64,000 nucleotides of DNA, taken from an uncultured Acidobacteriota bacterium (GTDB taxonomy: Bacteria > Acidobacteriota > Thermoanaerobaculia > Multivoradales > UBA5704). Every line of letters begins with the position of its first letter. Position 1 is the first letter of the stretch. The notes beneath the pieces were generated by a model. The model made no database searches. It saw nothing but the letters and a program-made list of their open reading frames with translations, and had not been told where the DNA came from. Positions 5,857-45,745 of the stretch are shown piece by piece. The stretch spans positions 1,748,240-1,812,239 of the forward strand of contig CAVWLA010000003.1 of assembly GCA_963755825.1 (NCBI GenBank), in the 5' to 3' direction. Position numbers and translations under genes: made by a program.

Positions 5857-8133
5857 TCACTCCTCCACCAAGCGGAAATACCGCACCGAAGCCCCCACCT
5901 CGACCTCACAACCCGCGGGCACGGCGAGCGCCTCGCCGCCGCGGCCGCGGACGGCGGCCGCCGGGCGGGGGAGGGTGGCGCGCGCGGCGCCCTCGACCGC
6001 CCAGCCGGCGACGGTCTCGCCGCCGTCCGGGCGGCGGAAGCGATAGAGGCGGACGGCGGGCGGCGCGGGGAGGATCTGCTCGAGGCGGCTGCCCTGCAGC
6101 TCGTCGACGAGAGTGCGGAGGGCGTGGAAGGCCGGCCGGCGGCGGGACGGGGCTCCCGGCACCGGCGCCAGGAGACCGTAGCCGCGCGCCGCCAGCTGCC
6201 ACCAGAAGACGGCCTCGACGAGGCCGGTGCCGAGGACCAGCAGGTAGTAGCGCGCCAGGTAGTCGGCCTGGGTCTCCTCGTCGACCGCGACGGCGCGGCC
6301 GGCGGGCGAGTGCGGCCCCTCCCAGAGCGGCCAGTTGACCTCGGTCACCCAGCAGCGGGCGGCGCCGCCCCCGGCGACGTTCGGCGCCGTCTCGGCGATC
6401 GCCTTCAAGAGCGCCACCTTGTCGACGGTGTCGAAGCCGGCCTGGCGGTTCTCCGGCGCTCCGCGGCGGTCGACGTAGAGAAGGGCGGAGACGCCGTCGA
6501 AGGCGAGGCCCGGCCGCCGCAGGTTGAGCACCGCGGCCGTCGCGTGGTACTCGAAGTCGATCACCGCCGGCCCGAGGATCTCGACCTCGCCCAGCCGGCG
6601 CAGGATCTCCATGGCGTCGCCGGCGAGCGCCAGGTACTCGCCGAGGTTCCAGATCCCCCACTTGCTGCGGTTGATGGCGTGGCCGATCTGGAAGCGGCGG
6701 CCGTACGGCAGGAAGCGGCTCCCCAGCTCCTCGACCGTGGCGCGCCAGCGGGCGGGGTCCTTCACCAGCTCGCGGTTCTGCGGCAATGCGAACGTCAGCT
6801 CGACGCCGGCCGCGGCGAGCGCGCCGGCGAGCGCCTCCTCGGCGGCGTGGTCGCTCGCCCAGGGGTGGAGGCGGAGGAGGACTTGGCGCACCCCCAGCTC
6901 GCGGACGGCGCCGAAGACCTCGCAGTCGGCACCCGGCGACGCCGGCCGCTCGGGATCGGGGCGCACGCCGAGGCCGAGGCCGGTGAAGGGGATCGGCGCG
7001 CCGCCGGGCGGGGCCTCCGCCAGGCCCCGGGAGATCTGCCGGTAGCGCGCCCAGATGCGCGGCGCCGCCCGCGCCACCACCGCGAGCTCGGCGAGGTGCG
7101 CCGGCGCGTCGGCGAGGCGGACCCCCAGCTTCTCGAGGCGGCCGGCGTGCTGATGCGGCTGGTCGGAGAGGGCGTCCCACACCGCCTTGTCGCGCGCCGC
7201 CGCCCCCGGCGCCGCCGGCGGGATGTGGGCGTGGGCGCGGCGCGGCAGCAGGGCGCGCAGGCGGGCGCGGCCGGCGCGCAGGCCGCGCTTGGCGTCGTTC
7301 TTGGCCAGGAAGGCGCGGCGGTAGATGGCGTAGAGCGACCGCCTGAGCGGCGTCGCGCCGCCCTCGCCCCAGTAGGCGGCGAGCAGCCGCTCGCGGTCCG
7401 CCGCCACGAAGAGGGCGAGGCGGCAGAGGTCGCGGCTGCGCTCGCTCACCGTCGGCACCCGCCCGAGCCGCGCCCGGTTGAGGTCGATCAGCGCCAGGTC
7501 GCGCGGGGTGATCGGGTCAAGCGGAATCGTCGGAGCAGGCTCGGCGCCGCCGGCGAGCGCCGCGGGGACGAGGACGTTGCCGCCGGAGAGGTCGCGGTGC
7601 CAGACGCCGGCGTCGTGGAGACGGCGAACGAGGACCCCCAGGGCGTCGACGAAGGCCGCGAAGTCGAGGCCGGGGTAGGCGGCGGCGAGGGTGCCGTCGT
7701 TCCTGGCGCGGAAGAGGTAGCGCGCCTCGACCGTCGCCGGCAGGTAGCGGCAGACGTAGAGGCAGGGGCCGCAGGGGCCCGTCGACTCGGCGACGAGCAC
7801 CGGCTCGGGGGTGGAGATGCCGGCGGCGGCGAGGGCGCGCGCCGCGTCGAAGCTCCGCGCCGCCTTGCTCGCCGGCCGCCGCCGCTCGCGCCGGCCGTCG
7901 CGGCGGAACTGCTTGACGACGACGTCGAACGGCCCCGCCGCGCCGCCCGCGAAGCGGGCGACGTAGAGGTAGTTGCGCCCCCAGTGGAGGGTCTTCCAAC
8001 CGGACGCTGGATCGGCGAGGCGCGCGATTTCAGCGGCGAGGGCGGTGGGCGCCGGAAAATGGCGGCGGACGATCCGGCCGGTCCAGCCGGGGACGGCGAA
8101 GGTCGCGAGGTCCGCCGGCTGCTCCCCCGGCAA
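5857..8133 (-). CDS. fusion protein: lipopolysaccharide kinase (Kdo/WaaP/RIO-like) N-domain plus TIM-barrel glycoside-hydrolase-like C-domain
   Basis: 758 aa. TTG start directly abuts the rng stop. The N-terminal ~250 aa carry VVKQFRR (ATP Lys) and a catalytic loop WHRDLSGGNVLV ... LIDLNRA. The C-terminal ~500 aa carry a clan GH-A-like WVTEVNWP (nucleophile-type TE.N) segment. Confidence 0.7.
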   Translation of the reverse strand: MPGEQPADLATFAVPGWTGRIVRRHFPAPTALAAEIARLADPASGWKTLHWGRNYLYVARFAGGAAGPFDVVVKQFRRDGRRERRRPASKAARSFDAARALAAAGISTPEPVLVAESTGPCGPCLYVCRYLPATVEARYLFRARNDGTLAAAYPGLDFAAFVDALGVLVRRLHDAGVWHRDLSGGNVLVPAALAGGAEPAPTIPLDPITPRDLALIDLNRARLGRVPTVSERSRDLCRLALFVAADRERLLAAYWGEGGATPLRRSLYAIYRRAFLAKNDAKRGLRAGRARLRALLPRRAHAHIPPAAPGAAARDKAVWDALSDQPHQHAGRLEKLGVRLADAPAHLAELAVVARAAPRIWARYRQISRGLAEAPPGGAPIPFTGLGLGVRPDPERPASPGADCEVFGAVRELGVRQVLLRLHPWASDHAAEEALAGALAAAGVELTFALPQNRELVKDPARWRATVEELGSRFLPYGRRFQIGHAINRSKWGIWNLGEYLALAGDAMEILRRLGEVEILGPAVIDFEYHATAAVLNLRRPGLAFDGVSALLYVDRRGAPENRQAGFDTVDKVALLKAIAETAPNVAGGGAARCWVTEVNWPLWEGPHSPAGRAVAVDEETQADYLARYYLLVLGTGLVEAVFWWQLAARGYGLLAPVPGAPSRRRPAFHALRTLVDELQGSRLEQILPAPPAVRLYRFRRPDGGETVAGWAVEGAARATLPRPAAAVRGRGGEALAVPAGCEVEVGASVRYFRLVEE

Positions 8134-9681
8134 TCAGACCTCGAGGACGTCGAAGCGCTCGTGGTGCAGCTCGGGGTCGCTCTGCAGGAGGATGGTCACC
8201 CCCAGCGAGCGCTCGAGCTCTTCGAGGATGGCGCGCTCCTCCTGCTGCAGGGCGCGCGACACCTCGGGGTGGACGCGCAGCAGGAGCTCGCCCGGCACGG
8301 CGCGGCCGCGCAGGCGGAGCAGCTCCTTCCTGAGGTTCAGGCAGATGGTGGTGATCGCCTGGATGCGGCCGCGGCCGCTGCAGTAGGGGCAGGGCTGGGT
8401 GAGCAGCCGCTCGAGGTTGGCGCGGCTGCGCTTCCTGGTGACTTCGACGAGGCCGAACTCCGAGATGTTCAGCATCTTGGTCTTCGCCCGGTCCTTGCGG
8501 ATCTCGGCCTCGAGCTTGGCGAAGACCTCCTCGCGGTGCGCCGGCTCGATCATGTCGATGAGGTCGATGACGATGATGCCGCCGAGGTCGCGCAGGCGGA
8601 TCTGGCGGACGACCTCGGAGACCGCCTCGAGGTTGGTCTGCAGCACGGTGTCCTCGAGGTTGCTCTGGCCGACGAAGCGGCCGGTGTTGACGTCGATCGC
8701 CACCAGCGCCTCGGTGGGGTTGATGACGATGTAGCCGCCGGACTTCAGCCAGACCTTGCTCTTCAACGCCGCCTCGATCTGGTCCTCGATGCCGAACTGC
8801 TCGAAGAGGGTGGCGTTCTGGCGGAACAGCCGCACCTTGCTGACCAGGTTCGGCTGCACCTGGTCGAGGAACTCGACGATCCGCTCGTAGGTCTCCTCGC
8901 CGTCGACCCAGAGGACGCTGAAGTCCTGCGACAGGAGGTCGCGGACGACGCGCAGAGCGAGGTCGAGGTCTTGGTGGAGGAGGGTCGGCGCCGAGACCTT
9001 GCTGGCGCGCTGGCGGACCTTGTCCCACAGCCGGGTGAGGTAGGCGAGGTCGGTCTCGAAGGCGTCGCGCTCCTTGCCCTCGCCGACGGTGCGGACGATG
9101 AGGCCGCCGGCGACCGGCAGCTGGGTGAGGACGGCGAGGAGGCGCTCGCGCTCGGCCTCCTCCTCGATGCGGCGGGAAACCCCGAAGTGGCGGACGGTGG
9201 GGAGGAGGACCAGGTAGCGGCCGGGGAGGGTGACGTGGGTGGAGATCCGCGCCCCCTTGTTGGGCAGCGGGTCCTTGACCACCTGGACGATGATCTCCTG
9301 GCCCTGCTTGAGGAGGTCGCCGATCTGCGGCGCCGGCCCGTGCGCCGGGTGCGCCGACGATCCAGAGCCCCCGGAGCCCCCCGCGCCGCCCGGCTCGTCG
9401 TGGCCGGCGCCGTTTCTCGCCTCCTCGATCTCCAGCTCCTCCATCGCCTCGACGTCGCCCGCCACGTCGCTGACGTAGAGGAAGGCGTCGCGGTCGAGGC
9501 CGATGTCGACGAAGGCCGCCTGCATGCCGGGGAGGACGCGCGTCACCCGCCCCTTGTAGACGTTGCCGACGACGCCGCGGTGGCGGTGCCGCTCGACGAA
9601 GATCTCGGTGAGGCGGTCGTCCTCCAGCACCCCGATGCGGGTCTGGTGCGGGTCGCTCTCGAGGAGCATCTTGAGCGTCAT
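8134..9681 (-). CDS. rng: ribonuclease G/E family (Rne/Rng)
   Basis: ATG at 9681 is in frame with track ORF 8134..10266. S1 domain GNVYKGRVTRVLPGMQAAFVDIG. Catalytic-core motifs IVIDLIDM and SEFGLVEVTRKR. Lies downstream of rodA, as in many mre/mrd clusters. Confidence 0.9.
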   Translation of the reverse strand: MTLKMLLESDPHQTRIGVLEDDRLTEIFVERHRHRGVVGNVYKGRVTRVLPGMQAAFVDIGLDRDAFLYVSDVAGDVEAMEELEIEEARNGAGHDEPGGAGGSGGSGSSAHPAHGPAPQIGDLLKQGQEIIVQVVKDPLPNKGARISTHVTLPGRYLVLLPTVRHFGVSRRIEEEAERERLLAVLTQLPVAGGLIVRTVGEGKERDAFETDLAYLTRLWDKVRQRASKVSAPTLLHQDLDLALRVVRDLLSQDFSVLWVDGEETYERIVEFLDQVQPNLVSKVRLFRQNATLFEQFGIEDQIEAALKSKVWLKSGGYIVINPTEALVAIDVNTGRFVGQSNLEDTVLQTNLEAVSEVVRQIRLRDLGGIIVIDLIDMIEPAHREEVFAKLEAEIRKDRAKTKMLNISEFGLVEVTRKRSRANLERLLTQPCPYCSGRGRIQAITTICLNLRKELLRLRGRAVPGELLLRVHPEVSRALQQEERAILEELERSLGVTILLQSDPELHHERFDVLEV

Positions 9682-9755
9682 GGCAGGGTCGGTTCGCGGG
9701 CTCGGACCGTCGAGTAGATCAGAAGGGCGCCCGCCGCCGCCAGCCGGGGGCTCGC

Positions 9756-10895
9756 TCACCGATTGACGTAGCGGCGCAGGTCGACCCCCAGGATGAGCCC
9801 GGTGGCGACGAAATTGAACAGCACGAAGGTGCCGCCGTAGGAGAGGAAGGGGATGGGGATGCCGGTGATGGGGACGAAGCCCACCACCATGGCGCTGTTG
9901 TAGAGCACGTGGAAGCAGAAGACGGAGAGCAGCCCGACGACGAGCAGGATGCCGGCGCGGTCGCGGGCGCGCATGGCGATGCGGGCGCCGCTGATGATGA
10001 AGAGGATGTAGCAGCCGATCACCGTCGCCACCCCCAGGAAGCCCCACTCCTCGGCGAGCACCGCCATGATGAAGTCGGTGTGCCGCGCCGGCAGGAAGCG
10101 GAGCTGGCTCTGCGTCCCCTGCATGTAGCCCTTGCCCATGAGCTCGCCCGAGCCCACCGCGATCTTGCTCTGCCGCACCTGGTAGCCGGCGCCCAGGGGA
10201 TCGTTCTCCGGCTGCAGGAAGGTGATCACCCGCTGCCGCTGGTACCCCTTCATGCCGAAGCTCCACAGGCCGGCGCCGCCGATGATGACGAGGAGCGTGG
10301 CGATGAGGAGGAGCCGCCAGCGCACCCCGGCGACGAGCAGCATGCCGACCAGGAGCGGCACGAACATCGCGGCGCCGCCCATGTCTGGCTCGACGACGAT
10401 CAAGAGCATGGGAAGGCCGACCAGGCCGACGGCGGCGGCGATCTGCGGCAGGTCGAGGACGCGGCGGTTGAGGCCGGCCAGGAAGCGGGCGAGGAAGAGC
10501 GCCGTCGCCAGCTTGGCGAACTCCGAGGGCTGGAACTGCCAGGGGCCGACCTGGATCCAGCAGGTGGCGCCGCCGCGCTTGACGCCGATGAAGAAGACGG
10601 CGACCAGCGACAGCAGGCCGAGGCCGTAGAGCACCAGCGAGAAGTCGAGGAGAACGTGGTAGTCGACCGCCATCGCCATGACGAGGAGGATCAGCCCGAG
10701 GCCGATCCAGGCCGCCTGGCGCGGCAGGTAGTCGGTCGTCATCTCGGCGCTCGCGCTGTGCACCGTGGCGAGGCCGATGAGGGCGAGGCAGAGGGCGGCG
10801 AGCACGAGGCCGCCGTCGATCGAGGAGAGCGCCCGCAGGCGCGGCTTCTCCTCAGGAAGCGAGGGGATGGCGATCGACCGCGAGAAGCTTTTCAT
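9756..10895 (-). CDS. rodA: rod shape-determining protein RodA (SEDS family peptidoglycan polymerase)
   Basis: 379 aa with about 10 TM segments. FtsW/RodA/SpoVE signatures (HTDFIMAVLAEEWGF, PITGIPIPFLSYGGT). Overlaps the mrdA 3' end. Confidence 0.9.
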   Translation of the reverse strand: MKSFSRSIAIPSLPEEKPRLRALSSIDGGLVLAALCLALIGLATVHSASAEMTTDYLPRQAAWIGLGLILLVMAMAVDYHVLLDFSLVLYGLGLLSLVAVFFIGVKRGGATCWIQVGPWQFQPSEFAKLATALFLARFLAGLNRRVLDLPQIAAAVGLVGLPMLLIVVEPDMGGAAMFVPLLVGMLLVAGVRWRLLLIATLLVIIGGAGLWSFGMKGYQRQRVITFLQPENDPLGAGYQVRQSKIAVGSGELMGKGYMQGTQSQLRFLPARHTDFIMAVLAEEWGFLGVATVIGCYILFIISGARIAMRARDRAGILLVVGLLSVFCFHVLYNSAMVVGFVPITGIPIPFLSYGGTFVLFNFVATGLILGVDLRRYVNR

Positions 10896-21743: not shown

Positions 21744-21805
21744 CGCGCGGCTGATCGCCTCTCGTCGGCTTCCGCTCGGAGGCGAGCAAACACTAGGAGG
21801 TCCCA

Positions 21806-23515
<1,710 letters not shown>

Positions 23516-25869: not shown

Positions 25870-27021
25870 ATGGACGCCGAGATCGAGCGCGGCGCGAGCG
25901 TCGTCCCGACGCGCTATTGGCATGCGCTGGACGATGGCCGCGTGCAGTGCGACCTCTGCCCGCGCTTCTGCAAGCTGCGCGAGGGGCAGCGCGGCCTCTG
26001 CTTCGTGCGCGCGCGGCTGGATGACGAGATCGTCCTCGCCACCTACGGCCGCTCCTCCGGCTTCTGCATCGACCCCATCGAAAAGAAGCCGCTCGACCAC
26101 TTCCTCCCCGGCACGCCGGTGCTCTCGTTCGGCACCGCTGGCTGCAACCTCGCCTGCAAGTTCTGCCAGAACTGGGACATCAGCAAGTCGCGGCAGACCG
26201 ACACCCTGGCCGACCAGGCGTCTCCCGAGCGGATCGCCGCCGCCGCGGCGCGCCTCGGCTGCCGGAGCGTCGCCTTCACCTACAACGACCCGGTGATCTT
26301 CCTCGAGTACGCGGTCGATGTCGCCGACGCCTGCCACGCGGCGGGCGTCAAGACCGTCGCCGTCACCGCCGGCGAGATCTGCCCCGAGCCGCGACGCGAC
26401 TTCTACCGCTCGATCGACGCCGCGAACGTCGACCTCAAGGGCTTCACCGACCGCTTCTACCGGAACGTCTGCGGCGGCGACCTGACGACGGTCAAGGAGA
26501 CGCTCGAGTACCTGAAGCACGAGACCGCCGTCTGGCTCGAGATCACGACGCTGCTGATCCCCGGGGAGAACGACTCCGACGCCGATCTCGACGCCATGAC
26601 GCGCTGGATCGGCGAGCGCCTGGGCCCCGACGTCCCCCTCCACTTCACCGCCTTCCATCCCGACTACAAGATGCTGGACCTGCCGAGCACGCCGCCCGCC
26701 ACCCTCACCCGCGCCCGCCGCATCGCCCGCGCCAATGGCCTCCGCTACGTCTACACCGGCAACGTCCGCGACCGCGAAGGCAACACCACCACCTGCCACG
26801 CCTGCGGCGAGACGCTGATCGGCCGCGACGGCTACGAGCTGACGCGCTGGAACCTGACACCGGAAGGAACCTGCCCCGCTTGCGCCACCCACTGCGCCGG
26901 TCGCTTCGAGGCGGTGCCGGGAAACTGGGGAGCCCGGCGGCAGCCAGTGCGCCTCGCCGACGAAGGCGACCCGGCCTTCACCCGCTCGCACCTCTTCGGC
27001 CGGCTGCCGGCGCTCCCCTGA
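25870..27021 (+). CDS. AmmeMemoRadiSam system radical SAM enzyme (PflA-like activase family)
   Basis: N-terminal CDLCPRFCKLREGQRGLCFVR. Radical SAM CxxxCxxC in GCNLACKFCQNWDIS. C-terminal Cys pairs CHACGE...CPAC. The overall pattern matches the AmmeMemoRadiSam-type family as I recall it. Confidence 0.8.
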   Translation: MDAEIERGASVVPTRYWHALDDGRVQCDLCPRFCKLREGQRGLCFVRARLDDEIVLATYGRSSGFCIDPIEKKPLDHFLPGTPVLSFGTAGCNLACKFCQNWDISKSRQTDTLADQASPERIAAAAARLGCRSVAFTYNDPVIFLEYAVDVADACHAAGVKTVAVTAGEICPEPRRDFYRSIDAANVDLKGFTDRFYRNVCGGDLTTVKETLEYLKHETAVWLEITTLLIPGENDSDADLDAMTRWIGERLGPDVPLHFTAFHPDYKMLDLPSTPPATLTRARRIARANGLRYVYTGNVRDREGNTTTCHACGETLIGRDGYELTRWNLTPEGTCPACATHCAGRFEAVPGNWGARRQPVRLADEGDPAFTRSHLFGRLPALP

Positions 27022-27030
27022 GACCAGGCA

Positions 27031-27142
27031 GCCAGCCGCCGGCGCACGCCTCGTAGCGCGCGATGTAGTCCTCCGGCAAGATGCCGGCGATGAGTTCGCC
27101 GAGGGCTTCGAAGGGGAGGTCTTCGAGCTTCTCGAAGCGGAC
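27031..27142 (-). pseudogene. truncated duplicate of the 3' end of the DUF1801 gene
   Basis: Encodes VRFEKLEDLPFEALGELIAGILPEDYIARYEA. The intact gene has VRFKKLEDLPLEALGELIAGISPEDYIERYEAVRRR. It has no 5' part, and an indel removes the native stop. Confidence 0.75.
27048..27142. repeat. left copy of the 95-nt direct repeat bracketing the low-GC islet
   Basis: Manual alignment with 28512-28606 gives 88 of 95 identical bases. Confidence 0.8.
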
Positions 27143-28511
27143 CCTATTTGTGGCGGGCCAAAATCTCACCCGAGCCTACATCTCCAGTCGCACCTCGGTC
27201 GAGCGCGGACTTGAGTAGCTCAACAGCACCAGACGCACTAGCAAGCAGCGCATCGATGTCAGGATCATCGATGCCCCGAGCCCGCAGCTGCAGCAGATTG
27301 AACATCGTCGCGGAGCTGTCACCCGTCGTCGCTTCGCACTTAGCTAAAAACGCTCGCGTCACCTTCGCAAGCTTCGAGCCTTCACCCTGATTGTCGAGCG
27401 CGCCGAGAATGCGGAGTGCAGAACGCTGGCGCAAACGGGATGCAACTCGTTCCTGACGTCTTGCCTTCGAGAGTTCTGCGACGACCGGGCTCAAGAGATT
27501 GAAATGCTCGCCAGCATTCTCTTTGAGCTTTTTGAGGAGAACTTTCTCCTCCGAGTCATCACCCCGTAGATCTCTTCGCGTAGACCACCAATCGCCGAGC
27601 TTTGGGAACAGGTGGCGCCGCCGAGTCAGCGAGAGAACGCGACGATCGTTGGCCGCTCCGGCGGCTTCGCAAAATTCCTGCAGGAACCCACAGGCTTCCG
27701 AGAATGCTTCGCGATCCGGCAATATCAGATGTTGCAGAAGCAAGCGGTGCAATCCGGACATCCCAACAGGAGGCATGCCGGGATCTCGCCCCTTCAGCTC
27801 CTTGTATTCAGGCTTGTTGCGCATCGCAAAGATCAAAAATGAGTCGAGGAGGAACAGCATCCGCAGCCTGGTCTCCACTTCCGCAAACGCCGCCTGAACG
27901 AGCGGGAGTCGATTGCCCAGGTCTGCACGCAGCTTGCCAAACTCCAAAGCCTCGCTCTGGAATCTCTCGATCACCTTGGAGTCGCGCAAGGATTTCTCGA
28001 CGATGCCCTCGGCAAGTAACTGCTCGGACAGGAACTCGGCTATTTCGTGATCGGCTGGCGCCTTCCCGATTCTTTCTTCGACCGCCTCACGGATCTGCAT
28101 TACGCTTGCAGCGATCAAAGAAGGCGGACTGCCGAGCAGGGACCACTCGAGGACGTACGTCTTTGTACCCAGGCTATTGAGAACCCCGCGAACCGAAACC
28201 GCGTCGTCGTGATCGCGTTTGATCCTCGCCTGCCGAACACTCTGGAGAAATCCCAGTGCTGCGATGATGATCGACAGAGGAGCAAATTTGGCAATTATTC
28301 CTAAGATGCTCGCCATCATGTTAAGAACTCTACCTTTCTGCTCCCCTTCGCCGCATCTTGGATCTTCCTGTTGGCCTGACGTCGGACTCCCAGGGCCGCT
28401 CCTCCGCGGACACCCGGGCGGCGTCCAGACCTAGAGACCCGCCGCAGGACGGGTTGTTTAGCGACGGAGCCCTGCCACGTCCGCCGGTCGGCCGCTCACC
28501 GCCGCCGCACC
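27143..28511. other. low-GC insertion (single-gene genomic islet)
   Basis: The base composition drops visibly relative to the flanks. For example, line 27781-27840 has 29 of 60 G+C. The segment is bounded by the direct repeats and contains one gene. Confidence 0.65.
27144..28319 (-). CDS. orphan hypothetical protein, 391 aa, N-terminal TM anchor plus a long region that looks helical
   Basis: It is the only long ORF in the low-GC segment and has non-artefactual amino-acid composition. N-terminal TM ILGIIAKFAPLSIIIAALGFL. No motif I can assign to a family. Confidence 0.75.
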   Translation of the reverse strand: MMASILGIIAKFAPLSIIIAALGFLQSVRQARIKRDHDDAVSVRGVLNSLGTKTYVLEWSLLGSPPSLIAASVMQIREAVEERIGKAPADHEIAEFLSEQLLAEGIVEKSLRDSKVIERFQSEALEFGKLRADLGNRLPLVQAAFAEVETRLRMLFLLDSFLIFAMRNKPEYKELKGRDPGMPPVGMSGLHRLLLQHLILPDREAFSEACGFLQEFCEAAGAANDRRVLSLTRRRHLFPKLGDWWSTRRDLRGDDSEEKVLLKKLKENAGEHFNLLSPVVAELSKARRQERVASRLRQRSALRILGALDNQGEGSKLAKVTRAFLAKCEATTGDSSATMFNLLQLRARGIDDPDIDALLASASGAVELLKSALDRGATGDVGSGEILARHK

Positions 28512-28939
28512 GCCTCGTAGCGCTCGATGTAGTCCTCGGGTGAGATGCCGGCGATGAGCTCGCCGAGGGCTTCGAGGGGGAGGTCTTCGAGCTTCTTGAA
28601 GCGGACGCAGGACTTTCCCATGTCGAGCTTTTTGCCGGCCTTCGCGAAGGCTTCGCGGAGCGCGGCCTCCTGCTCGGGGCTCATGTAGACGCACATGAGG
28701 TAGAGCGCGAAGTGGCTCTTCTGCGCCGCCAGCGCAACATAACCGAGCGGCTGGCCGTTGTAGGTCTCCGCGTAGCGCTCGAGCGGAATGACGTAGTTGA
28801 TCATCCCGTAGCCGATGACCTCGCGGTAGCCCGCCGGCAGGTGGCGGACGACCATGTCGCGGACGGCGGCGACGACCTGGCGGCGCTGCGGCGGCAGCTC
28901 GGCCAGGTATTCGTCGACGGTTGCGGCGGCGCTCTTCAT
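28496..28939 (-). CDS. DUF1801 (YdhG-like) domain protein
   Basis: ATG at 28939 is in frame with track ORF 28496..29158. MKSAAATVDEYLAELPPQRRQVVAAVRDMV is typical of DUF1801. The start overlaps the gltX stop (ATGA). Confidence 0.85.
   Translation of the reverse strand: MKSAAATVDEYLAELPPQRRQVVAAVRDMVVRHLPAGYREVIGYGMINYVIPLERYAETYNGQPLGYVALAAQKSHFALYLMCVYMSPEQEAALREAFAKAGKKLDMGKSCVRFKKLEDLPLEALGELIAGISPEDYIERYEAVRRR
28512..28606. repeat. right copy of the 95-nt direct repeat (inside the intact DUF1801 3' end)
   Basis: See 27048-27142. Confidence 0.8.
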
Positions 28940-30393
28940 CCTGGCGCTGCCGGCACGCTCGCCGCGAGGAAACGGCCAAAGTGGGCGAAGTGGCGGTCGC
29001 TCTCGTCGCGGCCCATGGCCTCGATGAGGTCGAAGACGGGCGGGCCGGCGGCGGCGCCGGAGAGGGCCATGCGGGTGGGGTGGATGAGGGCGCCGGCCTT
29101 GAGGCCGCGCTCGGTGGCGAGCGCGCGGAGGGCCGCCTCGAGCCCCTCCTTGGTCCACTCCGGGAGCGCCGCGAAGCGCGCGCGGAGGGCGTCCAGGTGG
29201 CCGCCGAGGTCGGGGTCGGCGCGGAACTTGGCGGTGGCCTCGGGGTCGTAGTCGAGCCGCTCGCGGAAGTAGGGCACGACGAGCTCGGCGAGGTCGCCGA
29301 GGGTGCGGGCGCGGGTGCGGTGGAGCTCCAGGGCTCGCGCCAGGCGCCCCGGGTCGGCGCCGGCGAGGCCGGCGGCGGCGAGGAAGGGCTCGAGGTGCGG
29401 CAGGATCGCCGCCAGCGGCAGCTGCGAGAGGTACTGCGCGTTCACCCAGAAGAGCTTCTCGCGGTCGAAGATCGCCGCCGAGGCGTTCAGGCGGTCGGTC
29501 GAGAAGATCGCCGCCATCTCGCCGCGGGAGAGGATCTCGCGGTCGCCGCCCGGCGACCAGCCGAGGAGCGCCATGTAGTTGTAGAGTGCCTGCGGCAGCA
29601 CGCCCTCGTCGCGGAACTCCTCGACCGAGGTGGCGCCGGTGCGCTTGGAGAGGCGCTTCTTGTCCGGCCCGAGGATGAGCGGCAGGTGGGCGAAGGCGGG
29701 CACCGCGGCGCCCAGGGCGCGGAAGAGCGGCACGTGCTTCGGCGTGTTCGAAAGGTGGTCCTCGCCGCGGATGACGTGGGTGATCCGCATGTCGATGTCG
29801 TCGACGACGACCGACATGTGGTACGTCGGCGAGCCGTCGGAGCGCAGCAGGATGAAGTCGTCGAGCGCCTCGGGCGGGAAGTCCATGCGGCCGCGCACCA
29901 GGTCGTCGAAGACGACGTGGTCGTCCGGCATGCGGAAGCGGACGACGAACGGCCGGCCGGCGGCGAGCCGCGCCGCGACCTCGCCGGGGTCGAGCCGCAG
30001 GCAGGTGCGCGGATAGAGGAAGGCGAGGCCCTTCGCCTGCGCCGCGGCGCGCTCGGCGTCGAGCTCCTCGGCGGTGCAGAAGCAGCGATAGGCGCGGCCG
30101 GCGGCGAGCAGCTCCTCGCCGCGCTCGCGATGGCGGGCCAGCCGCTCGCTCTGCAGGTACGGCCCCTCGTCCCAGGCGACGCCGATCCAGGCGAGCGCCG
30201 CCTGGATCTGGCGCGTCATCGCCTCGTCCGAGCGCTCGCGGTCGGTGTCCTCGATGCGCAGCACGAAGGCGCCGCCGGCATGCTGGCGCAGCAGGTCGTT
30301 GTAGATCGCCGTGCGCACGCCGCCGACGTGGAGGAACCCCGTGGGGGACGGGGCGAAACGCACCCGCACCGCGCCATCGATCTCGTTCGCCAT
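28936..30393 (-). CDS. gltX: glutamate--tRNA ligase
   Basis: ATG at 30393 is in frame with track ORF 28936..30813. Class I HIGH motif in RFAPSPTGFLHVGGVRTA. KMSKS-type KRLSKR. Confidence 0.95.
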   Translation of the reverse strand: MANEIDGAVRVRFAPSPTGFLHVGGVRTAIYNDLLRQHAGGAFVLRIEDTDRERSDEAMTRQIQAALAWIGVAWDEGPYLQSERLARHRERGEELLAAGRAYRCFCTAEELDAERAAAQAKGLAFLYPRTCLRLDPGEVAARLAAGRPFVVRFRMPDDHVVFDDLVRGRMDFPPEALDDFILLRSDGSPTYHMSVVVDDIDMRITHVIRGEDHLSNTPKHVPLFRALGAAVPAFAHLPLILGPDKKRLSKRTGATSVEEFRDEGVLPQALYNYMALLGWSPGGDREILSRGEMAAIFSTDRLNASAAIFDREKLFWVNAQYLSQLPLAAILPHLEPFLAAAGLAGADPGRLARALELHRTRARTLGDLAELVVPYFRERLDYDPEATAKFRADPDLGGHLDALRARFAALPEWTKEGLEAALRALATERGLKAGALIHPTRMALSGAAAGPPVFDLIEAMGRDESDRHFAHFGRFLAASVPAAPG

Positions 30394-35895: not shown

Positions 35896-38754
35896 TTAGG
35901 CGAGCCGCCGGCGGCGGGCGAGGAGAGCCGCGCCGAGGACGGCGAGCAGCGCCGCCGCCGACCCGGCGATGGCGAGCTGGCGGCGATGGATGAAGCCCCA
36001 GCTCCGCCCGCCGGGGGCGGGCACCAGGTCGCCATCGCCCAAGACGACGAAGCCGGCCCATGCCGAGGTGGGGATTTCCGGATTCTCGCGGCGGAGGTCG
36101 CGCTGCGCCGCGGCGAGAGCGGCCGAGTAGCTCATCCCCGCGGCGAGATGGCGGTAGAACCACTGGAAGAAGTTCCGCGCCTCGTCGTCCCGCTGCGGCC
36201 AGAGGCTCGCCACCACGACGCTCGCCTTCGCCTCGAAGAAGGCACGAGCGAGCGACAGGACTCCCTCGCCGCGCACCAGCTCACCGCGGGCGCTGCTGCA
36301 GGTCGAGAGCACGACGGCTTGCCCTGGGCGGAGCGGCAGCGCGGCGATCTCCGACGTCCGCAGCAGGCCGTCCTCGCTGGGAGATCCAGGGGACAGCCAG
36401 ATGCCGGCGCTCTCGGGTTCGTGCTCGTCGGCCAGCGAGTGTGTGGCGAAGTGGAGAATGGCGAAGCGCTGCAGGCTCCTGCTCTCGGCCATCTTTTTGA
36501 AGGCGCTCTCCGAGACGTCGTCGCCGACGCGGCGATCACCGCCCAGCGAGTCGACGGCAGTGCGCGCCTCGCTGGCGGCAAACTGCAGCGCCTCGGCCGG
36601 CAGGTCGACGCCTTCGAGCCGCGTGCGCAGGGCGGCATCGGGAAGCGGCGGATTGGCGAGGGCGAGCACCGGCCGGCCACCGGGGAGCGCCTTCTCCTGG
36701 TGCCAGAGCTGCCAGAGGGTGGCGGAGGGCACCTCCGAGAGCAGGAAGCGCTCGCCGAGCGGTGGCCCTGCCGCCAGATGCAGAGCGGCGAAGGGGAGGC
36801 GGCTCAGGGCGTCGTCGGGGACGACGATCAGGTGGTCGATCGCCGCCGGCAGGCCGGCGAGGGCGGGCGCCACGAGCTGCCCGTAGAGGCCGGCGGCGAG
36901 CGCCCTCTCGCGGCTCGTGCCGGGCCCGGAGCCCGCGGCGGCCGCGAGGTACTCGTCGACCGCCGAGCGCATAGCCTGGCGACCCATCCCGCCGAGGCGG
37001 ACCACACGGGGCGGCGCGTCGCGGGTGATGACGACGAGCCAGGAACCGCCACCGAAGTCCCCCGTCCAGTCGTTCCAGGGCGCGACCTGAAACGAGAGCA
37101 GGGCCTCGTTCGCGAGCAGGTGCGCGCGCACTTGAGAGAGGCTCGCGCGAGCCTTGGCGGGCGGTGCCGGGGGCACGGCGCGCTCGGCTTCCACCGCGCG
37201 TTGGTCTCGCCCGAGCGCGGCGAGGTCCTCCGTCGCCTCGCCGCGTTCGCTCGGAGAGAGAGAGGCGTCCCTTGCGCGGTCGGCGACGCGCTTGATCTCC
37301 TTCTCGAGCAGCGAAGCTCGATCGTCCAGCTCCTTCTCGGTCGCCGGGTTTGCGGGCGTTTTCTCGAGCGTCTCGAGCAGCGTCTGCGCGCGCAGGCGCT
37401 CGATGACATCGAACGCTCGCGAGAGGAGATCCGCGTCGTGCCCGGCCGCGGCCGCTAGGAGGTGTCCGGAAGACCAGTAGAACTCGTCCGACCAGGTCGA
37501 AAAGAACCTCGCCTGGCTGTTCCCGCCCTCCTGGCTGCCGCGAAGCGCCTCGATGTCGTGCAGCGCCGCCTCCGTCGCCGCCAGTGCCTCGCCGCGAGAA
37601 CCGCTCCTCCAAGCAGCGCGCATCGCGCTCTCGCGCGCATAGATCGCCGCCCACGGATCGGAGCCGGCGAGCTTGATCGCTTGGTCCGCCGCCGCCTTCG
37701 CCGCCGCCGGATCGCTCGCGGCAAGATTGCGAGCGCGAGCGCCGAAACAGTAGCTGCGATTCATGTTGGCAATTTTCTGCCGCGGATCGAGGCAGGCGTC
37801 GAGATCCGCCTCGGCAGCGGCGCCGCCCAGCAACTCGGCAAGCACATCGTGCTCGGTGCTGGCATTGCTGGAATCGCGCACGGCCTCGGCAACGCGGAGC
37901 GCTCGCTCCATGGCAGCGACCGCCTCGGCACGTGCTTCCGCGCTCGGCAGCACGGCCAGCCTTTCGACCACAACGCGAGCGATCCCGTAGAGGGCGGTCG
38001 ATGCCGCACTATTTTCGGGCTTGTGGCTCGCTAGATCATAGCTGCGCTTGTAAGCGGTCTTTGCCTCGTCGAAGAGACCGAGCTCGAGGGCGACGCTGCC
38101 GAGAGTCGCCTGGCAGTCCTGCTGAACCGCTTTCCCTCCGAGAAGCCCTGGGTACGCCGCCAGCTGCCGATCGACATTCTTCAGGAGAGCTTCGGCACGA
38201 CGCAGCGCCTTGCCGGATCGGAGGTGCTGCTTCGCCTCCAGGATCTTCCGCTTCGCCACGCTGATCGTATCGGTCGCGGAGGCGGAAGCCGCGAGGGCGC
38301 GAGCGGTCTCCAGCTCGACTTCATCGAGAAACTTCTCGCCGTACAGCACGCGGATGAGACTCGTCCGCGCCACCAACTCGCCCGCACGATCCCCTCGCAC
38401 GGCGAAGCCGGCAGCCGCCGATCGATAGCCCACCTCGTCGGTAACAGACGGCGAAGCGTCGGGCTCGAGCAGATGAGTGGTGCTGTAGGAGATCCAGGGA
38501 TGGAGAGGAGCGCTGCCAGGAGCGTGCGCGGCGAGAGCCTGCATGCGGCGAACGATCTCCAGGCCCTTCGCGTCGTCCAGCGGATGATGCTGATCGGGCA
38601 GAGCCTCGAAACACGCTGCCGTCTCCCTGGCTTCGGGGCTCGCGGCGAACCTCTTCTCGCAGCTGGCTACGTCACCGGCCTGCGCCTGCCCAGCCGCGGC
38701 GAGGAGCAGGAGCAGGCCGGCGACGGCGGCATCTCCGGCGGCATTTGGCGTCAC
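35896..38754 (-). CDS. TPR-repeat CHAT-domain (caspase-like) protease with signal peptide and C-terminal membrane anchor
   Basis: 952 aa, GTG start. N-terminal h-region AVAGLLLLLAAAGQAQA. About 500 aa of TPR-like helical repeats. CHAT dyad candidates are His in FAILHFATHS (about residue 772) and Cys in VVLSTCSS (residue 819, codon 36298-36300). C-terminal TM LAIAGSAAALLAVLGAALLA followed by RRRR. Confidence 0.88.
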   Translation of the reverse strand: MTPNAAGDAAVAGLLLLLAAAGQAQAGDVASCEKRFAASPEARETAACFEALPDQHHPLDDAKGLEIVRRMQALAAHAPGSAPLHPWISYSTTHLLEPDASPSVTDEVGYRSAAAGFAVRGDRAGELVARTSLIRVLYGEKFLDEVELETARALAASASATDTISVAKRKILEAKQHLRSGKALRRAEALLKNVDRQLAAYPGLLGGKAVQQDCQATLGSVALELGLFDEAKTAYKRSYDLASHKPENSAASTALYGIARVVVERLAVLPSAEARAEAVAAMERALRVAEAVRDSSNASTEHDVLAELLGGAAAEADLDACLDPRQKIANMNRSYCFGARARNLAASDPAAAKAAADQAIKLAGSDPWAAIYARESAMRAAWRSGSRGEALAATEAALHDIEALRGSQEGGNSQARFFSTWSDEFYWSSGHLLAAAAGHDADLLSRAFDVIERLRAQTLLETLEKTPANPATEKELDDRASLLEKEIKRVADRARDASLSPSERGEATEDLAALGRDQRAVEAERAVPPAPPAKARASLSQVRAHLLANEALLSFQVAPWNDWTGDFGGGSWLVVITRDAPPRVVRLGGMGRQAMRSAVDEYLAAAAGSGPGTSRERALAAGLYGQLVAPALAGLPAAIDHLIVVPDDALSRLPFAALHLAAGPPLGERFLLSEVPSATLWQLWHQEKALPGGRPVLALANPPLPDAALRTRLEGVDLPAEALQFAASEARTAVDSLGGDRRVGDDVSESAFKKMAESRSLQRFAILHFATHSLADEHEPESAGIWLSPGSPSEDGLLRTSEIAALPLRPGQAVVLSTCSSARGELVRGEGVLSLARAFFEAKASVVVASLWPQRDDEARNFFQWFYRHLAAGMSYSAALAAAQRDLRRENPEIPTSAWAGFVVLGDGDLVPAPGGRSWGFIHRRQLAIAGSAAALLAVLGAALLARRRRLA

Positions 38755-44296: not shown

Positions 44297-45601
44297 TCAG
44301 CCGGCGTGCTGGGGCCGGTTCCAGGCGCGGCGGAGATAGGTGGTGAGCTCGCGGAAGATGCTCCCCCGGACCTGCTTCTCGCGCAGCGAGCGCAGCGCGA
44401 GGAGGAGGACGGCGAGCCCCTCCTCGTGCATCCCCCAGCCCGCGAGCGAGCTGTGGATCTGCCCGACGATGTCGAGCGTCTCGTCGAGGCGGCCCTGGGC
44501 GGCGAAATTCTCCGCCAGGTCGATCATCATCAGGACGTACTCCTGATGGAGGCCGTAGCGGAGCAGCTCCTCGGCCGTGCCGGTGAGGATCGCCTCGGCC
44601 TCGGCGAGCCGCCCCATGCCGCGGTGGATCTTGGCCTCGAGCCAGAGGCGGCGGATCTGGGCGGCGCGGTCTCCGAAGCGGTGATAGAGCCAGCGGGACT
44701 TCTGCAGCAGCTCCTGCGCCTCTTCCGGTCGGCCGAGATCGCAGAGGAAAAACGCCGAGGTATGCCGGATGGAGAGCTCTAGCCGGGGCTCGCGGTGACC
44801 GTCGATCAGGGCGTGGGCGTCGCGCAGCAGGGCGACGCCGCGCTCGGGATCGACGTAGCCGATCGCCAGCGCCTCCTGGATGTTGACGCGGCCGATCATG
44901 TGCCGATCGCGCACCCTCTCGTAGATGGCGCGAGCCTTGGCGAGAACAGCGACAGCCTTGTCGAAGCGACCGAGATCGGTCAGTAGCGAGGCGGTGAGCG
45001 AATAGATGTGCGCCAGCTCGAGCCGATCGCAATCGTCTTGCTCGAGGAGGATGCGCTCCGCCAGCGCGAGCGAGCCGGCGGCGGCCTCAAAGTCGGCTGC
45101 CAGGCGCTGAGCGTTGCCGAGCGCGGCGAGAGCGGCGGTCCTGATCTCCAGGATCGTGGGCTCTCCGTAGCTGGCCCCGTCGAGCTTCTCGGCGACAGCG
45201 AGAGCGAGGCGAGCCAACTCCACAGCGTCGATCGGCTCGTCGCGTGCCCGCTCCTTGGAAACCTCGAGGAGCCGCTCGTACAGACCATAAGTGAGGTAAC
45301 TGGGGTCGTTGTTGATGCGGAGCTGGCGCTGCCGGGGGGAGAGACGCTCGAGATAGGCCCACTGCTCGCGGGCTCGCAGCCGCTCCGACCGCGGCTCGCT
45401 CGGCCACGCTGATCTCGTGCTCATCAATCGCCAGAAGACGGCGTCGTACTCGGCCGGCGGCTCCTCGTGAGCAAAAACGTCGCTCGCGAGCTGTCGGCAG
45501 ATCCGGCAACCGGACAGCAGATGCCGCAGGATCCGGTTGCGGTCCTCGCTACCCATGGAATTGTCGAAAAAACTCCGAAGCTCGCCCCGCATCACGTGCA
45601 T
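44297..45601 (-). CDS. cytoplasmic TPR-repeat protein with N-terminal zinc-finger-like motif (anti-sigma-like)
   Basis: ATG at 45601 lies 5 nt after GGAGGG. N-terminal HLLSGCRICRQ resembles the zf-HC2 motif of anti-sigma factors. There is no TM segment. The remaining ~350 aa are TPR-like helical repeats. Confidence 0.7.
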   Translation of the reverse strand: MHVMRGELRSFFDNSMGSEDRNRILRHLLSGCRICRQLASDVFAHEEPPAEYDAVFWRLMSTRSAWPSEPRSERLRAREQWAYLERLSPRQRQLRINNDPSYLTYGLYERLLEVSKERARDEPIDAVELARLALAVAEKLDGASYGEPTILEIRTAALAALGNAQRLAADFEAAAGSLALAERILLEQDDCDRLELAHIYSLTASLLTDLGRFDKAVAVLAKARAIYERVRDRHMIGRVNIQEALAIGYVDPERGVALLRDAHALIDGHREPRLELSIRHTSAFFLCDLGRPEEAQELLQKSRWLYHRFGDRAAQIRRLWLEAKIHRGMGRLAEAEAILTGTAEELLRYGLHQEYVLMMIDLAENFAAQGRLDETLDIVGQIHSSLAGWGMHEEGLAVLLLALRSLREKQVRGSIFRELTTYLRRAWNRPQHAG

Positions 45602-45745
45602 GGCACCCTCCGAAGGGGCTGTCGCGAATCCAGCGCGGATTCTACAACCTTGCGAAGGTACGGAGAAGGGCTGAGCTCGGAAGACGCAAGCCTCCCCAGG
45701 GAGGGTCACTGTCCTCCCAGCCCCGAAGTCCTGATTCGAGAAGGG

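Follow-up and report, generated by a model that had tools for sequence, protein, structure and literature searches.

The DNA analysed here (64,000 nt, hereafter the window) came from an uncultured Acidobacteriota bacterium (contig CAVWLA010000003.1 of assembly GCA_963755825.1, forward strand, positions 1,748,240 to 1,812,239). It contained a low-GC islet (27143–28380) that carried a single gene, designated ORF391, and lay between two direct copies of the 3′ end of a DUF1801 gene. Along the minus strand the order was gltX, the intact DUF1801 gene, a GC-rich spacer, a low-GC leader, ORF391, a relic DUF1801 end and a radical SAM gene.

gltX (28936..30393, minus strand) was an open reading frame (ORF) for a glutamyl-tRNA synthetase of 485 aa with a HIGH-motif sequence, and its orthologous neighbour at the related locus L086 had tRNA-synt_1c and Anticodon_2 matches. 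Its stop codon overlapped the DUF1801 start (ATGA, 28936–28939), indicating that the two formed one operon; in the related locus L004 the corresponding gap was 38 nt. The DUF1801 gene (28496..28939, minus strand, 147 aa; PF08818, E = 1.1e-14) was intact: its protein aligned over the full length with homologs and ended in ...YIERYEAVRRR*, as in the closest relatives. On the far side lay a convergent gene for an AmmeMemoRadiSam-system radical SAM protein (25870..27021, plus strand; TIGR04337, E = 2.6e-194).

Composition and the duplicated DUF1801 end

The islet had a GC content of 56.9%, against 71.8% for the window and 72.4–72.5% in its 3-kb flanks. This was the lowest value of all 1,238-nt windows (mean 71.7%, standard deviation (sd) 3.5%), 4.2 sd under the mean, and the tetranucleotide distance was 5.5 sd above the window mean. 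GC at third codon positions was 64% in the enclosed ORF versus 91–95% in four neighbouring genes. The islet is thus a compositionally foreign, horizontally acquired single-gene segment. A preliminary description of this DNA, made by eye, had called the segment poor in G+C from one sampled line (27781–27840, indeed 29 of 60 G+C) and had counted one gene in it; computation bore out both points, with one ORF at 27144–28319 on the minus strand, and the strong deviation in GC and tetranucleotides disposed of its proviso that the composition might turn out to be that of the genome. The next most deviant parts of the window were the rpoD gene (21800–23500, 63–67% GC, tetranucleotide distance about +2.3 sd) and a 470-aa ORF at 44300–45700 (about +2.3 sd), both far milder than the islet.

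Two short segments separated the DUF1801 stop codon from ORF391. The first was a spacer of 115 nt (28381..28495, minus strand, 74.8% GC), lying between the stop and the low-GC DNA. It had no similarity to any related locus or to any other part of the window, no significant fold (z = -0.1 and -0.3) and no Rfam match, and it may be the native downstream sequence of DUF1801 in a closely related donor. The second was a leader of 61 nt (28320..28380, minus strand, 52.5% GC), which formed the proximal edge of the foreign DNA.

The two copies of the DUF1801 end formed a direct repeat that was 89/96 identical without gaps (27047–27142 and 28511–28606); recomputed at 27048–27142 and 28512–28606, the coordinates given by the preliminary description, the identity was 88/95, exactly as counted there by hand. 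BLASTN within the window extended the repeat, with one gap, to 27036–27142 and 28499–28606 (108 columns, 91.7%, E = 4e-38). Gapped local alignment extended it to ~116 nt, reaching about 27027 and 28490, slightly beyond the DUF1801 stop codon (TGA, 28496–28498, minus strand). No third copy was found in the 64-kb window. The right, proximal copy (28490..28606, ungapped core 28511–28606, minus strand) comprised codons 112–147 and the stop of the functional DUF1801 gene, and so was the genuine gene end, as had been proposed. The left, distal copy (27027..27142, ungapped core 27047–27142, minus strand) was a displaced, decaying DUF1801 pseudo-3′ end. It had no in-frame stop at the homologous place, where indels had removed it, and it began 1 nt from the ORF391 stop; both features had been described correctly beforehand.

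Homology to the right copy began abruptly at 27142, that is, at DUF1801 codon 112, and stopped about 6 nt from the stop codon of the radical SAM gene. At the distal junction (27142..27143) the foreign DNA ended in ...CACAAATAG-G and the duplicated DUF1801 sequence began with GTCCGC, codon 112.

The CGG-rich tract at the extreme end of DUF1801 seemed to be indel-prone. The relic lost its stop there (window 27027–27046), and a 1-nt deletion in the same tract of the related locus L085 (L085:596–625 versus L084:2045–2074) shifted the stop and added three residues (SRRREAT*). At the other edge of the relic, the radical SAM protein ran about 20 residues past its family model (TIGR04337 ended at 362 of 383) and most homologs matched only to residues 362–364; the tail lay at window 26955–27021, where it was overlapped on the opposite strand by read-through of the stop-less relic. 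The rearrangement may also have changed the 3′ end of the radical SAM gene.

The window came from a 3.08-Mb metagenomic contig, and repeats are classic sites of mis-joining, so a chimeric join, or a repeat collapsed or expanded in assembly, had to be considered. An independent Logan assembly of run ERR11718634 reproduced both the gene order and the spacings across the repeats (176 nt and 122 nt), indicating that mis-assembly was unlikely. The two copies also differed at seven sites plus indels and hence were not a collapsed repeat. We regard an assembly artefact as extremely improbable.

To polarise the differences, the orthologous gene ends of L084, L085, L086 and L004 were added as outgroups to an alignment of both window copies. 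Derived states that no outgroup had (e.g. GGC ATC T.., GAG GAC) were common to the two copies. Among the seven substitutions in the core, six were derived in the left copy and one in the right, which kept the outgroup state at 6/7 sites. The changes in the left copy included four amino-acid replacements (K115E, L122F, S133L and E139A), with two substitutions in one codon; K115E and L122F hit nearly invariant residues. On this alignment the two copies are each other's closest relatives, the left one being a lineage-specific duplicate of the genome's own gene end. Because six of seven substitutions were left-derived, the stop was lost by indels and derived states were shared, the copies must have been near-identical when made and must stem from this lineage. 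The left copy has since decayed neutrally. An origin of the left copy from an independent DUF1801 paralogue, the proviso raised in the preliminary description, was rejected, since it shared lineage-specific derived states with the resident gene.

The cargo gene ORF391

ORF391 (27144..28319, minus strand, 391 aa) was co-oriented with gltX and DUF1801, and its TAG stop codon lay 1 nt from the left repeat. It was an orphan: no family match was found in Pfam, NCBIfam, PADLOC, PHROG or by PDB sequence profile, and no relatives were found in phage, plasmid and IMG/VR collections. Of 5.8 billion clustered proteins, four were homologs (40–52% identity, the nearest 52%), and a set of 1.84 billion yielded about 15 full-length representatives. 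The four homologs were on short metagenome contigs; two of the three readable contigs were profiled and had GC contents of 52–64%, matching that of the islet. Their neighbours differed (among them a LON substrate-binding protein and a cupin), neither repeats on the flanks nor a DUF1801 gene was found at any of these loci (0/4), and nucleotide similarity between the islet and these loci was confined to the ORF. Looking for the same cassette elsewhere, as the preliminary description had advised, led to these homologs at four loci in unrelated contexts, without repeats.

AlphaFold2 modelling of ORF391 from a 17-sequence alignment gave a mean predicted confidence (pLDDT) of 84.8, whereas a 5-sequence alignment gave an unusable model (pLDDT 47.6). 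The predicted model, together with hydropathy, comprised one N-terminal hydrophobic helix (residues about 5–23) and an all-alpha body, and ORF391 is predicted to be a membrane protein anchored by this helix. Foldseek comparison of the model with the PDB returned generic long-helix matches only (E > 0.07, TM <= 0.2).

The C-terminal ~60 residues (~330–390, window 27144–27350; ...GIDDPDIDALLAS...ELLKSALDRGA...ILARH) formed a module that matched about 80 other, otherwise different protein clusters of 56–390 aa. Pfam scans of 10 module-bearing proteins returned nothing, and the PDB gave a weak ankyrin-like match (E = 0.96). The module may be an undescribed small helical domain.

ORF391 ended in ...LARHK*, and 16/16 homologs extended 5–35 residues further. 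Because the stop codon was 1 nt from the junction and the C-terminus was shorter than in all 16, the breakpoint would fall inside the last codons of the cargo gene. This suggests that the foreign DNA was broken within ORF391 rather than at the defined end of an element.

The remainder of the gene was intact, with all family-invariant residues retained. ORF391 is probably under selection and useful to its host, because it was unbroken while the relic beside it had decayed; an unselected sequence of 1,176 nt should show many frameshifts. Promoter and terminator scans gave promoter-like matches only inside ORF391, and the gene is probably expressed by read-through from the gltX–DUF1801 operon.

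The slot downstream of DUF1801 in relatives

For comparison with relatives, 86 DUF1801 loci and 80 radical SAM loci from a metagenome scan were examined. A duplicated gene end or tandem DUF1801 was present at 0/86 DUF1801 loci, and DUF1801 or ORF391 lay near the radical SAM gene at 0/80 related loci. The exact radical SAM protein of the window was not on record. No DUF1801 above 86% identity was found in 5.8e9 proteins, and no conspecific genome was present in the collections searched. An empty-site allele, in which DUF1801 would directly adjoin the radical SAM gene as the preliminary description envisaged, was not found in the genomes searched, because the closest DUF1801 was only 86% identical. 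That description had also allowed for all relatives sharing the same arrangement with conserved flanks; the relatives in fact differed.

The best DUF1801 match in a genome scan was 81% identical (L004, from an Acidobacteriota metagenome-assembled genome). Here aldehyde dehydrogenase, gltX and DUF1801 were kept in order and the downstream genes were different: a gene fragment, a MacB-type permease and a SIR2–TIR protein. The fragment-like ORF was at 6436–6525, and the last gene (9176–10687 region) encoded a 503-aa protein with SIR2-like and TIR parts, a defence-type architecture. Synteny of gltX and DUF1801 was maintained in L004, L084 and L086.

In relatives with DUF1801 identities of 79–86%, the slot behind the gene had at least three different contents. 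Loci L084, L085 and L086 had a common backbone, gltX–(AbiEii-like pair)–DUF1801–{slot}–DUF6364–adh_short. In L086 the slot (1930–2314) was filled by an intact PIN toxin gene of 385 nt, paired with DUF6364. In L084 (2085–3129), as in L167 (507–1297) and L168 (534–1430), it was filled by about 1.05 kb of 51–55% GC encoding an orphan of 294 aa; the L084 copy carried a frameshift. In L085 (~619–1590) it was filled by about 0.97 kb of 55% GC with orphans of 103 aa and 182 aa. These inserts were mutually unrelated and unrelated to ORF391, low in GC, co-oriented with DUF1801 and without repeats, and the slot DNA began 6–12 nt after the DUF1801 stop. The L084 and L085 breakpoints lay within about 15 nt of each other though the inserts were unrelated. 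Judged from these loci, the slot behind gltX–DUF1801 appears to be a variable hotspot for accessory genes, collecting orphan and toxin–antitoxin genes.

Upstream of DUF1801, an AbiEii/NTP_transf_5-like nucleotidyltransferase gene and a partner of 79–80 aa lay between gltX and DUF1801 (L084:876–1593, L086:717–1437) and resembled a toxin–antitoxin pair. With this pair upstream and the variable slot downstream, both sides of DUF1801 are insertion-prone in the clade.

In L084 and L085 only the first ~19–26 codons of the PIN gene were left beside the insert, which has the signature of an illegitimate insertion–deletion. Events of this kind, truncating a neighbour at the slot, lend some colour to a two-step history of the window, in which a tandem or segmental DUF1801 duplicate arose beside the radical SAM gene and foreign DNA then replaced its 5′ two-thirds together with the intergenic DNA. 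That the left copy is a lineage-specific duplicate, not a distant paralogue, also fits, as does the sudden onset of homology at codon 112, which resembles a deletion endpoint. Such a history needs two rare events where one suffices, and a tandem DUF1801 was seen at none of the 86 loci. Moreover, homology ended just past the stop codon, although a segmental duplication should include flanking DNA, so a single anchored event fits better. We consider the two-step history quite unlikely.

A more far-reaching reading of the slot is that the position 3′ of DUF1801 is a dedicated acceptor site in this Acidobacteriota clade, at which unrelated, promoterless single-gene cassettes are exchanged by a recombinase encoded elsewhere. 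The cassettes would be low in GC, about 1 kb long and co-oriented, and the 96–116-nt duplication in the window would be the sole case with both sites surviving. If true, this would be an integron-like cassette system with the integrase in trans and the end of a protein-coding gene as attachment site, and considerably more interesting; we regard it as a long shot.

Origin of the islet and comparison with known systems

The preliminary description had interpreted the locus as the footprint of site-specific integration into a gene 3′ end, with the replacement end supplied by the element, while reporting no integrase, transposase or terminal inverted repeats. That absence was upheld for the islet and nearby ORFs. 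Neither the islet nor the ORFs tested at 17–39 kb of the window yielded a recombinase, and no integrase lay beside DUF1801 in the closest relatives (L004 and L084–L086). There was no transposase in the islet, and the duplication, at 96–116 nt, was unlike a short target-site duplication. No inverted repeats at the islet ends were found among the longest 25 of 122 pairs. Neither IntI nor attI was found among the ORFs tested at 17–39 kb. No attC-like fold was present (the spacer and the repeats gave z from -0.1 to -1.6 versus shuffles, and only 1 nt followed the cargo stop). An arm of an element was absent from the distal junction, with its single nucleotide between the cargo stop and the left repeat, and no remnant genes of an integrative and conjugative element (ICE) or integrative and mobilizable element (IME) were found, the islet being one ORF.

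The genes annotated at 17–39 kb encoded MutS2, DnaG, RpoD, an amidohydrolase, the radical SAM protein, GltX, aldehyde dehydrogenase, a SnoaL-like protein and a CHAT-domain protein, and tRNA-Asn and tRNA-Ser also lay in this stretch. The CHAT-domain (caspase-like protease) protein (952 aa, 35896–38754) was encoded about 7 kb from the islet and was apparently unrelated to it.

Some features of an integrative element were present, namely direct repeats of the target 3′ end and an intact target, DUF1801. Flanking repeats without recombinase genes are also features of a cis-mobilizable element (CIME), the repeats here being candidate recombination sites only. A decayed or trans-mobilised site-specific element could have integrated at the DUF1801 3′ end and supplied a near-identical end. 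Internal deletion would then have removed its integrase and most genes, so that attL, one cargo gene and attR remained. The architecture (intact target, 3′-end repeats, stop-less relic, low-GC cargo) fits; elements that lack an integrase but retain attL and attR have been described as CIMEs (PMC5704250); and the start of variable DNA 6–12 nt past the DUF1801 stop in several relatives could reflect a preferred site. Against such an element stand the lack of a recombinase in or near the islet and of any remnant of other element genes, the 1-nt distal border with a truncated cargo C-terminus, and a duplicated end in none of the 86 DUF1801 loci. The cargo homologs, besides, lay in unrelated contexts without repeats and had no phage, plasmid or viral relatives, and the deletion endpoint would need to coincide with the repeat boundary. 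We judge an element of this kind unlikely. Of the earlier integration reading, the foreign DNA, the duplicated DUF1801 end, the intact gene and the displaced stop-less relic all stand; the site-specific mechanism with an element-supplied end is not supported, in view of the missing distal arm, the truncated cargo, the near-identity of the copies, the lack of recurrence (0/86) and the unrelated, repeat-free inserts at the same slot in relatives, two of which left only a stub of PIN.

Two features of homology-facilitated illegitimate recombination (HFIR) were found. One border lay in homology to the recipient (the ~116-nt DUF1801 end, with copies near-identical at origin), and the other (27142|27143) was without extended homology, the truncated end of ORF391 being joined to DUF1801 codon 112. 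HFIR, which combines a single homologous anchor with an illegitimate joint, is a well-established way for foreign DNA to enter genomes, and displaced 3′ ends at Rhs and type VI secretion system (T6SS) loci have been attributed to it (PMC5361080, PMC3240628). On the sequence features above, we tentatively prefer homology-anchored illegitimate recombination, or a Campbell-type single crossover, at the variable slot, in one event and with no site-specific recombinase, although we put this a little short of an even chance.

The donor DNA, from a close relative, would already have carried the DUF1801 3′ end, the 115-nt GC-rich spacer and ORF391 in this order. It would have paired with the resident DUF1801 gene by homologous recombination, as the anchor, and its other end, broken in the last codons of ORF391, would have been fused, with no homology, to the resident gene at codon 112. 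By an equivalent route, the fragment would first have formed a circle, which then integrated through one Campbell-type crossover inside the ~116-nt homology. Either route would duplicate the anchor and delete no DNA. Such an anchored event would explain why the spacer has host-like GC, why homology runs out soon after the stop codon and sets in abruptly at codon 112, and why the cargo gene is truncated. The donor, the order of the steps and the mode of expression are what we infer from these features.

The same junctions could in principle have arisen by break-repair capture or replication template switching, in which staggered ends of ~116 nt were filled in and foreign DNA was end-joined between them, giving a long target-site duplication with no homology step. 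The near-identity of the copies at origin, the two junctions without detectable homology to the insert, and the lack of a recombinase and of inverted repeats are all consistent with this. The insert would then have to include the host-like spacer of 74.8% GC and so be composite, the end of the duplicated block almost at the stop codon would be a coincidence, and overhangs of about 116 nt are unusual. Break-repair capture seems to us very unlikely.

Several points weigh against the preferred anchored recombination. It is read from one occupied allele, with no donor, empty site or intermediate. Adjacency of DUF1801 and the radical SAM gene, assumed for the recipient, was seen in no other genome examined. 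The C-terminal tails of the ORF391 homologs were poorly conserved, so the short C-terminus may be natural variation. Published HFIR events are mostly known to delete recipient DNA and not to duplicate it. A deletion within a once-larger integrated element could also give the same picture.

If the anchored recombination holds, the locus offers a clean, datable example of a single foreign gene joined to a housekeeping operon without mobile-element machinery. Having gathered 6 derived substitutions as well as indels over about 116 nt, the relic copy could serve as a neutral clock. The analysis also brings to notice a rare, structurally unmatched family, that of ORF391 (about 15 clusters among 1.84 billion representatives), and flags the variable slot behind gltX–DUF1801 in an uncultured Acidobacteriota lineage.

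Elements that target gene 3′ ends and supply a replacement end include e14 and phage 21 in icd, ICESt-type elements in fda and tRNA-targeting islands. Like them, the islet had an intact target, direct repeats of the 3′ end, a displaced pseudo-3′ end at the far border and foreign cargo. Unlike them, its unit was only 1.46 kb (1,464 bp), with no integrase, no att arm on one side and cargo cut at the junction; the differences between its copies were relic decay and not pre-existing synonymous divergence, and there was no second instance in 86 loci. The islet resembled CIMEs in being flanked by repeats of the target-gene end without integration or transfer genes (PMC5704250), but its repeats were only candidate att sites, it held no ICE or IME remnant, and no cognate integrase-bearing element is known for DUF1801. 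Like integron cassettes, it was a single, apparently promoterless ORF co-oriented with upstream transcription, in a slot that also took unrelated units; unlike them, it had no attC, IntI or attI, and a duplicated host gene end occurred in one genome only.

In Campbell-type insertion–duplication, as with suicide plasmids, a circle carrying a gene fragment enters by one crossover and direct repeats come to flank the insert. The islet was likewise flanked by direct repeats of a ~116-bp gene fragment. It differed in containing no replicon or vector, and a chromosomal fragment of a relative would need to have become circular by chance.

HFIR and C-terminal displacement in Rhs, contact-dependent inhibition (CDI) and T6SS effectors share with the islet one anchor and one illegitimate joint with no recombinase, as well as displacement of the old 3′ end to a downstream position, where it survives as an orphan fragment that still includes a short repeat from the conserved part (PMC5361080, PMC3240628). 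In contrast to those systems, DUF1801 is no polymorphic toxin, the displaced end was a near-identical copy and not a different variant, ORF391 is no known immunity or toxin module, and recipient DNA was duplicated and not deleted. Set beside these systems, the islet seems to be the scar of a recombination event at a variable position, a product of ordinary horizontal-transfer biology, rather than a new kind of mobile element.

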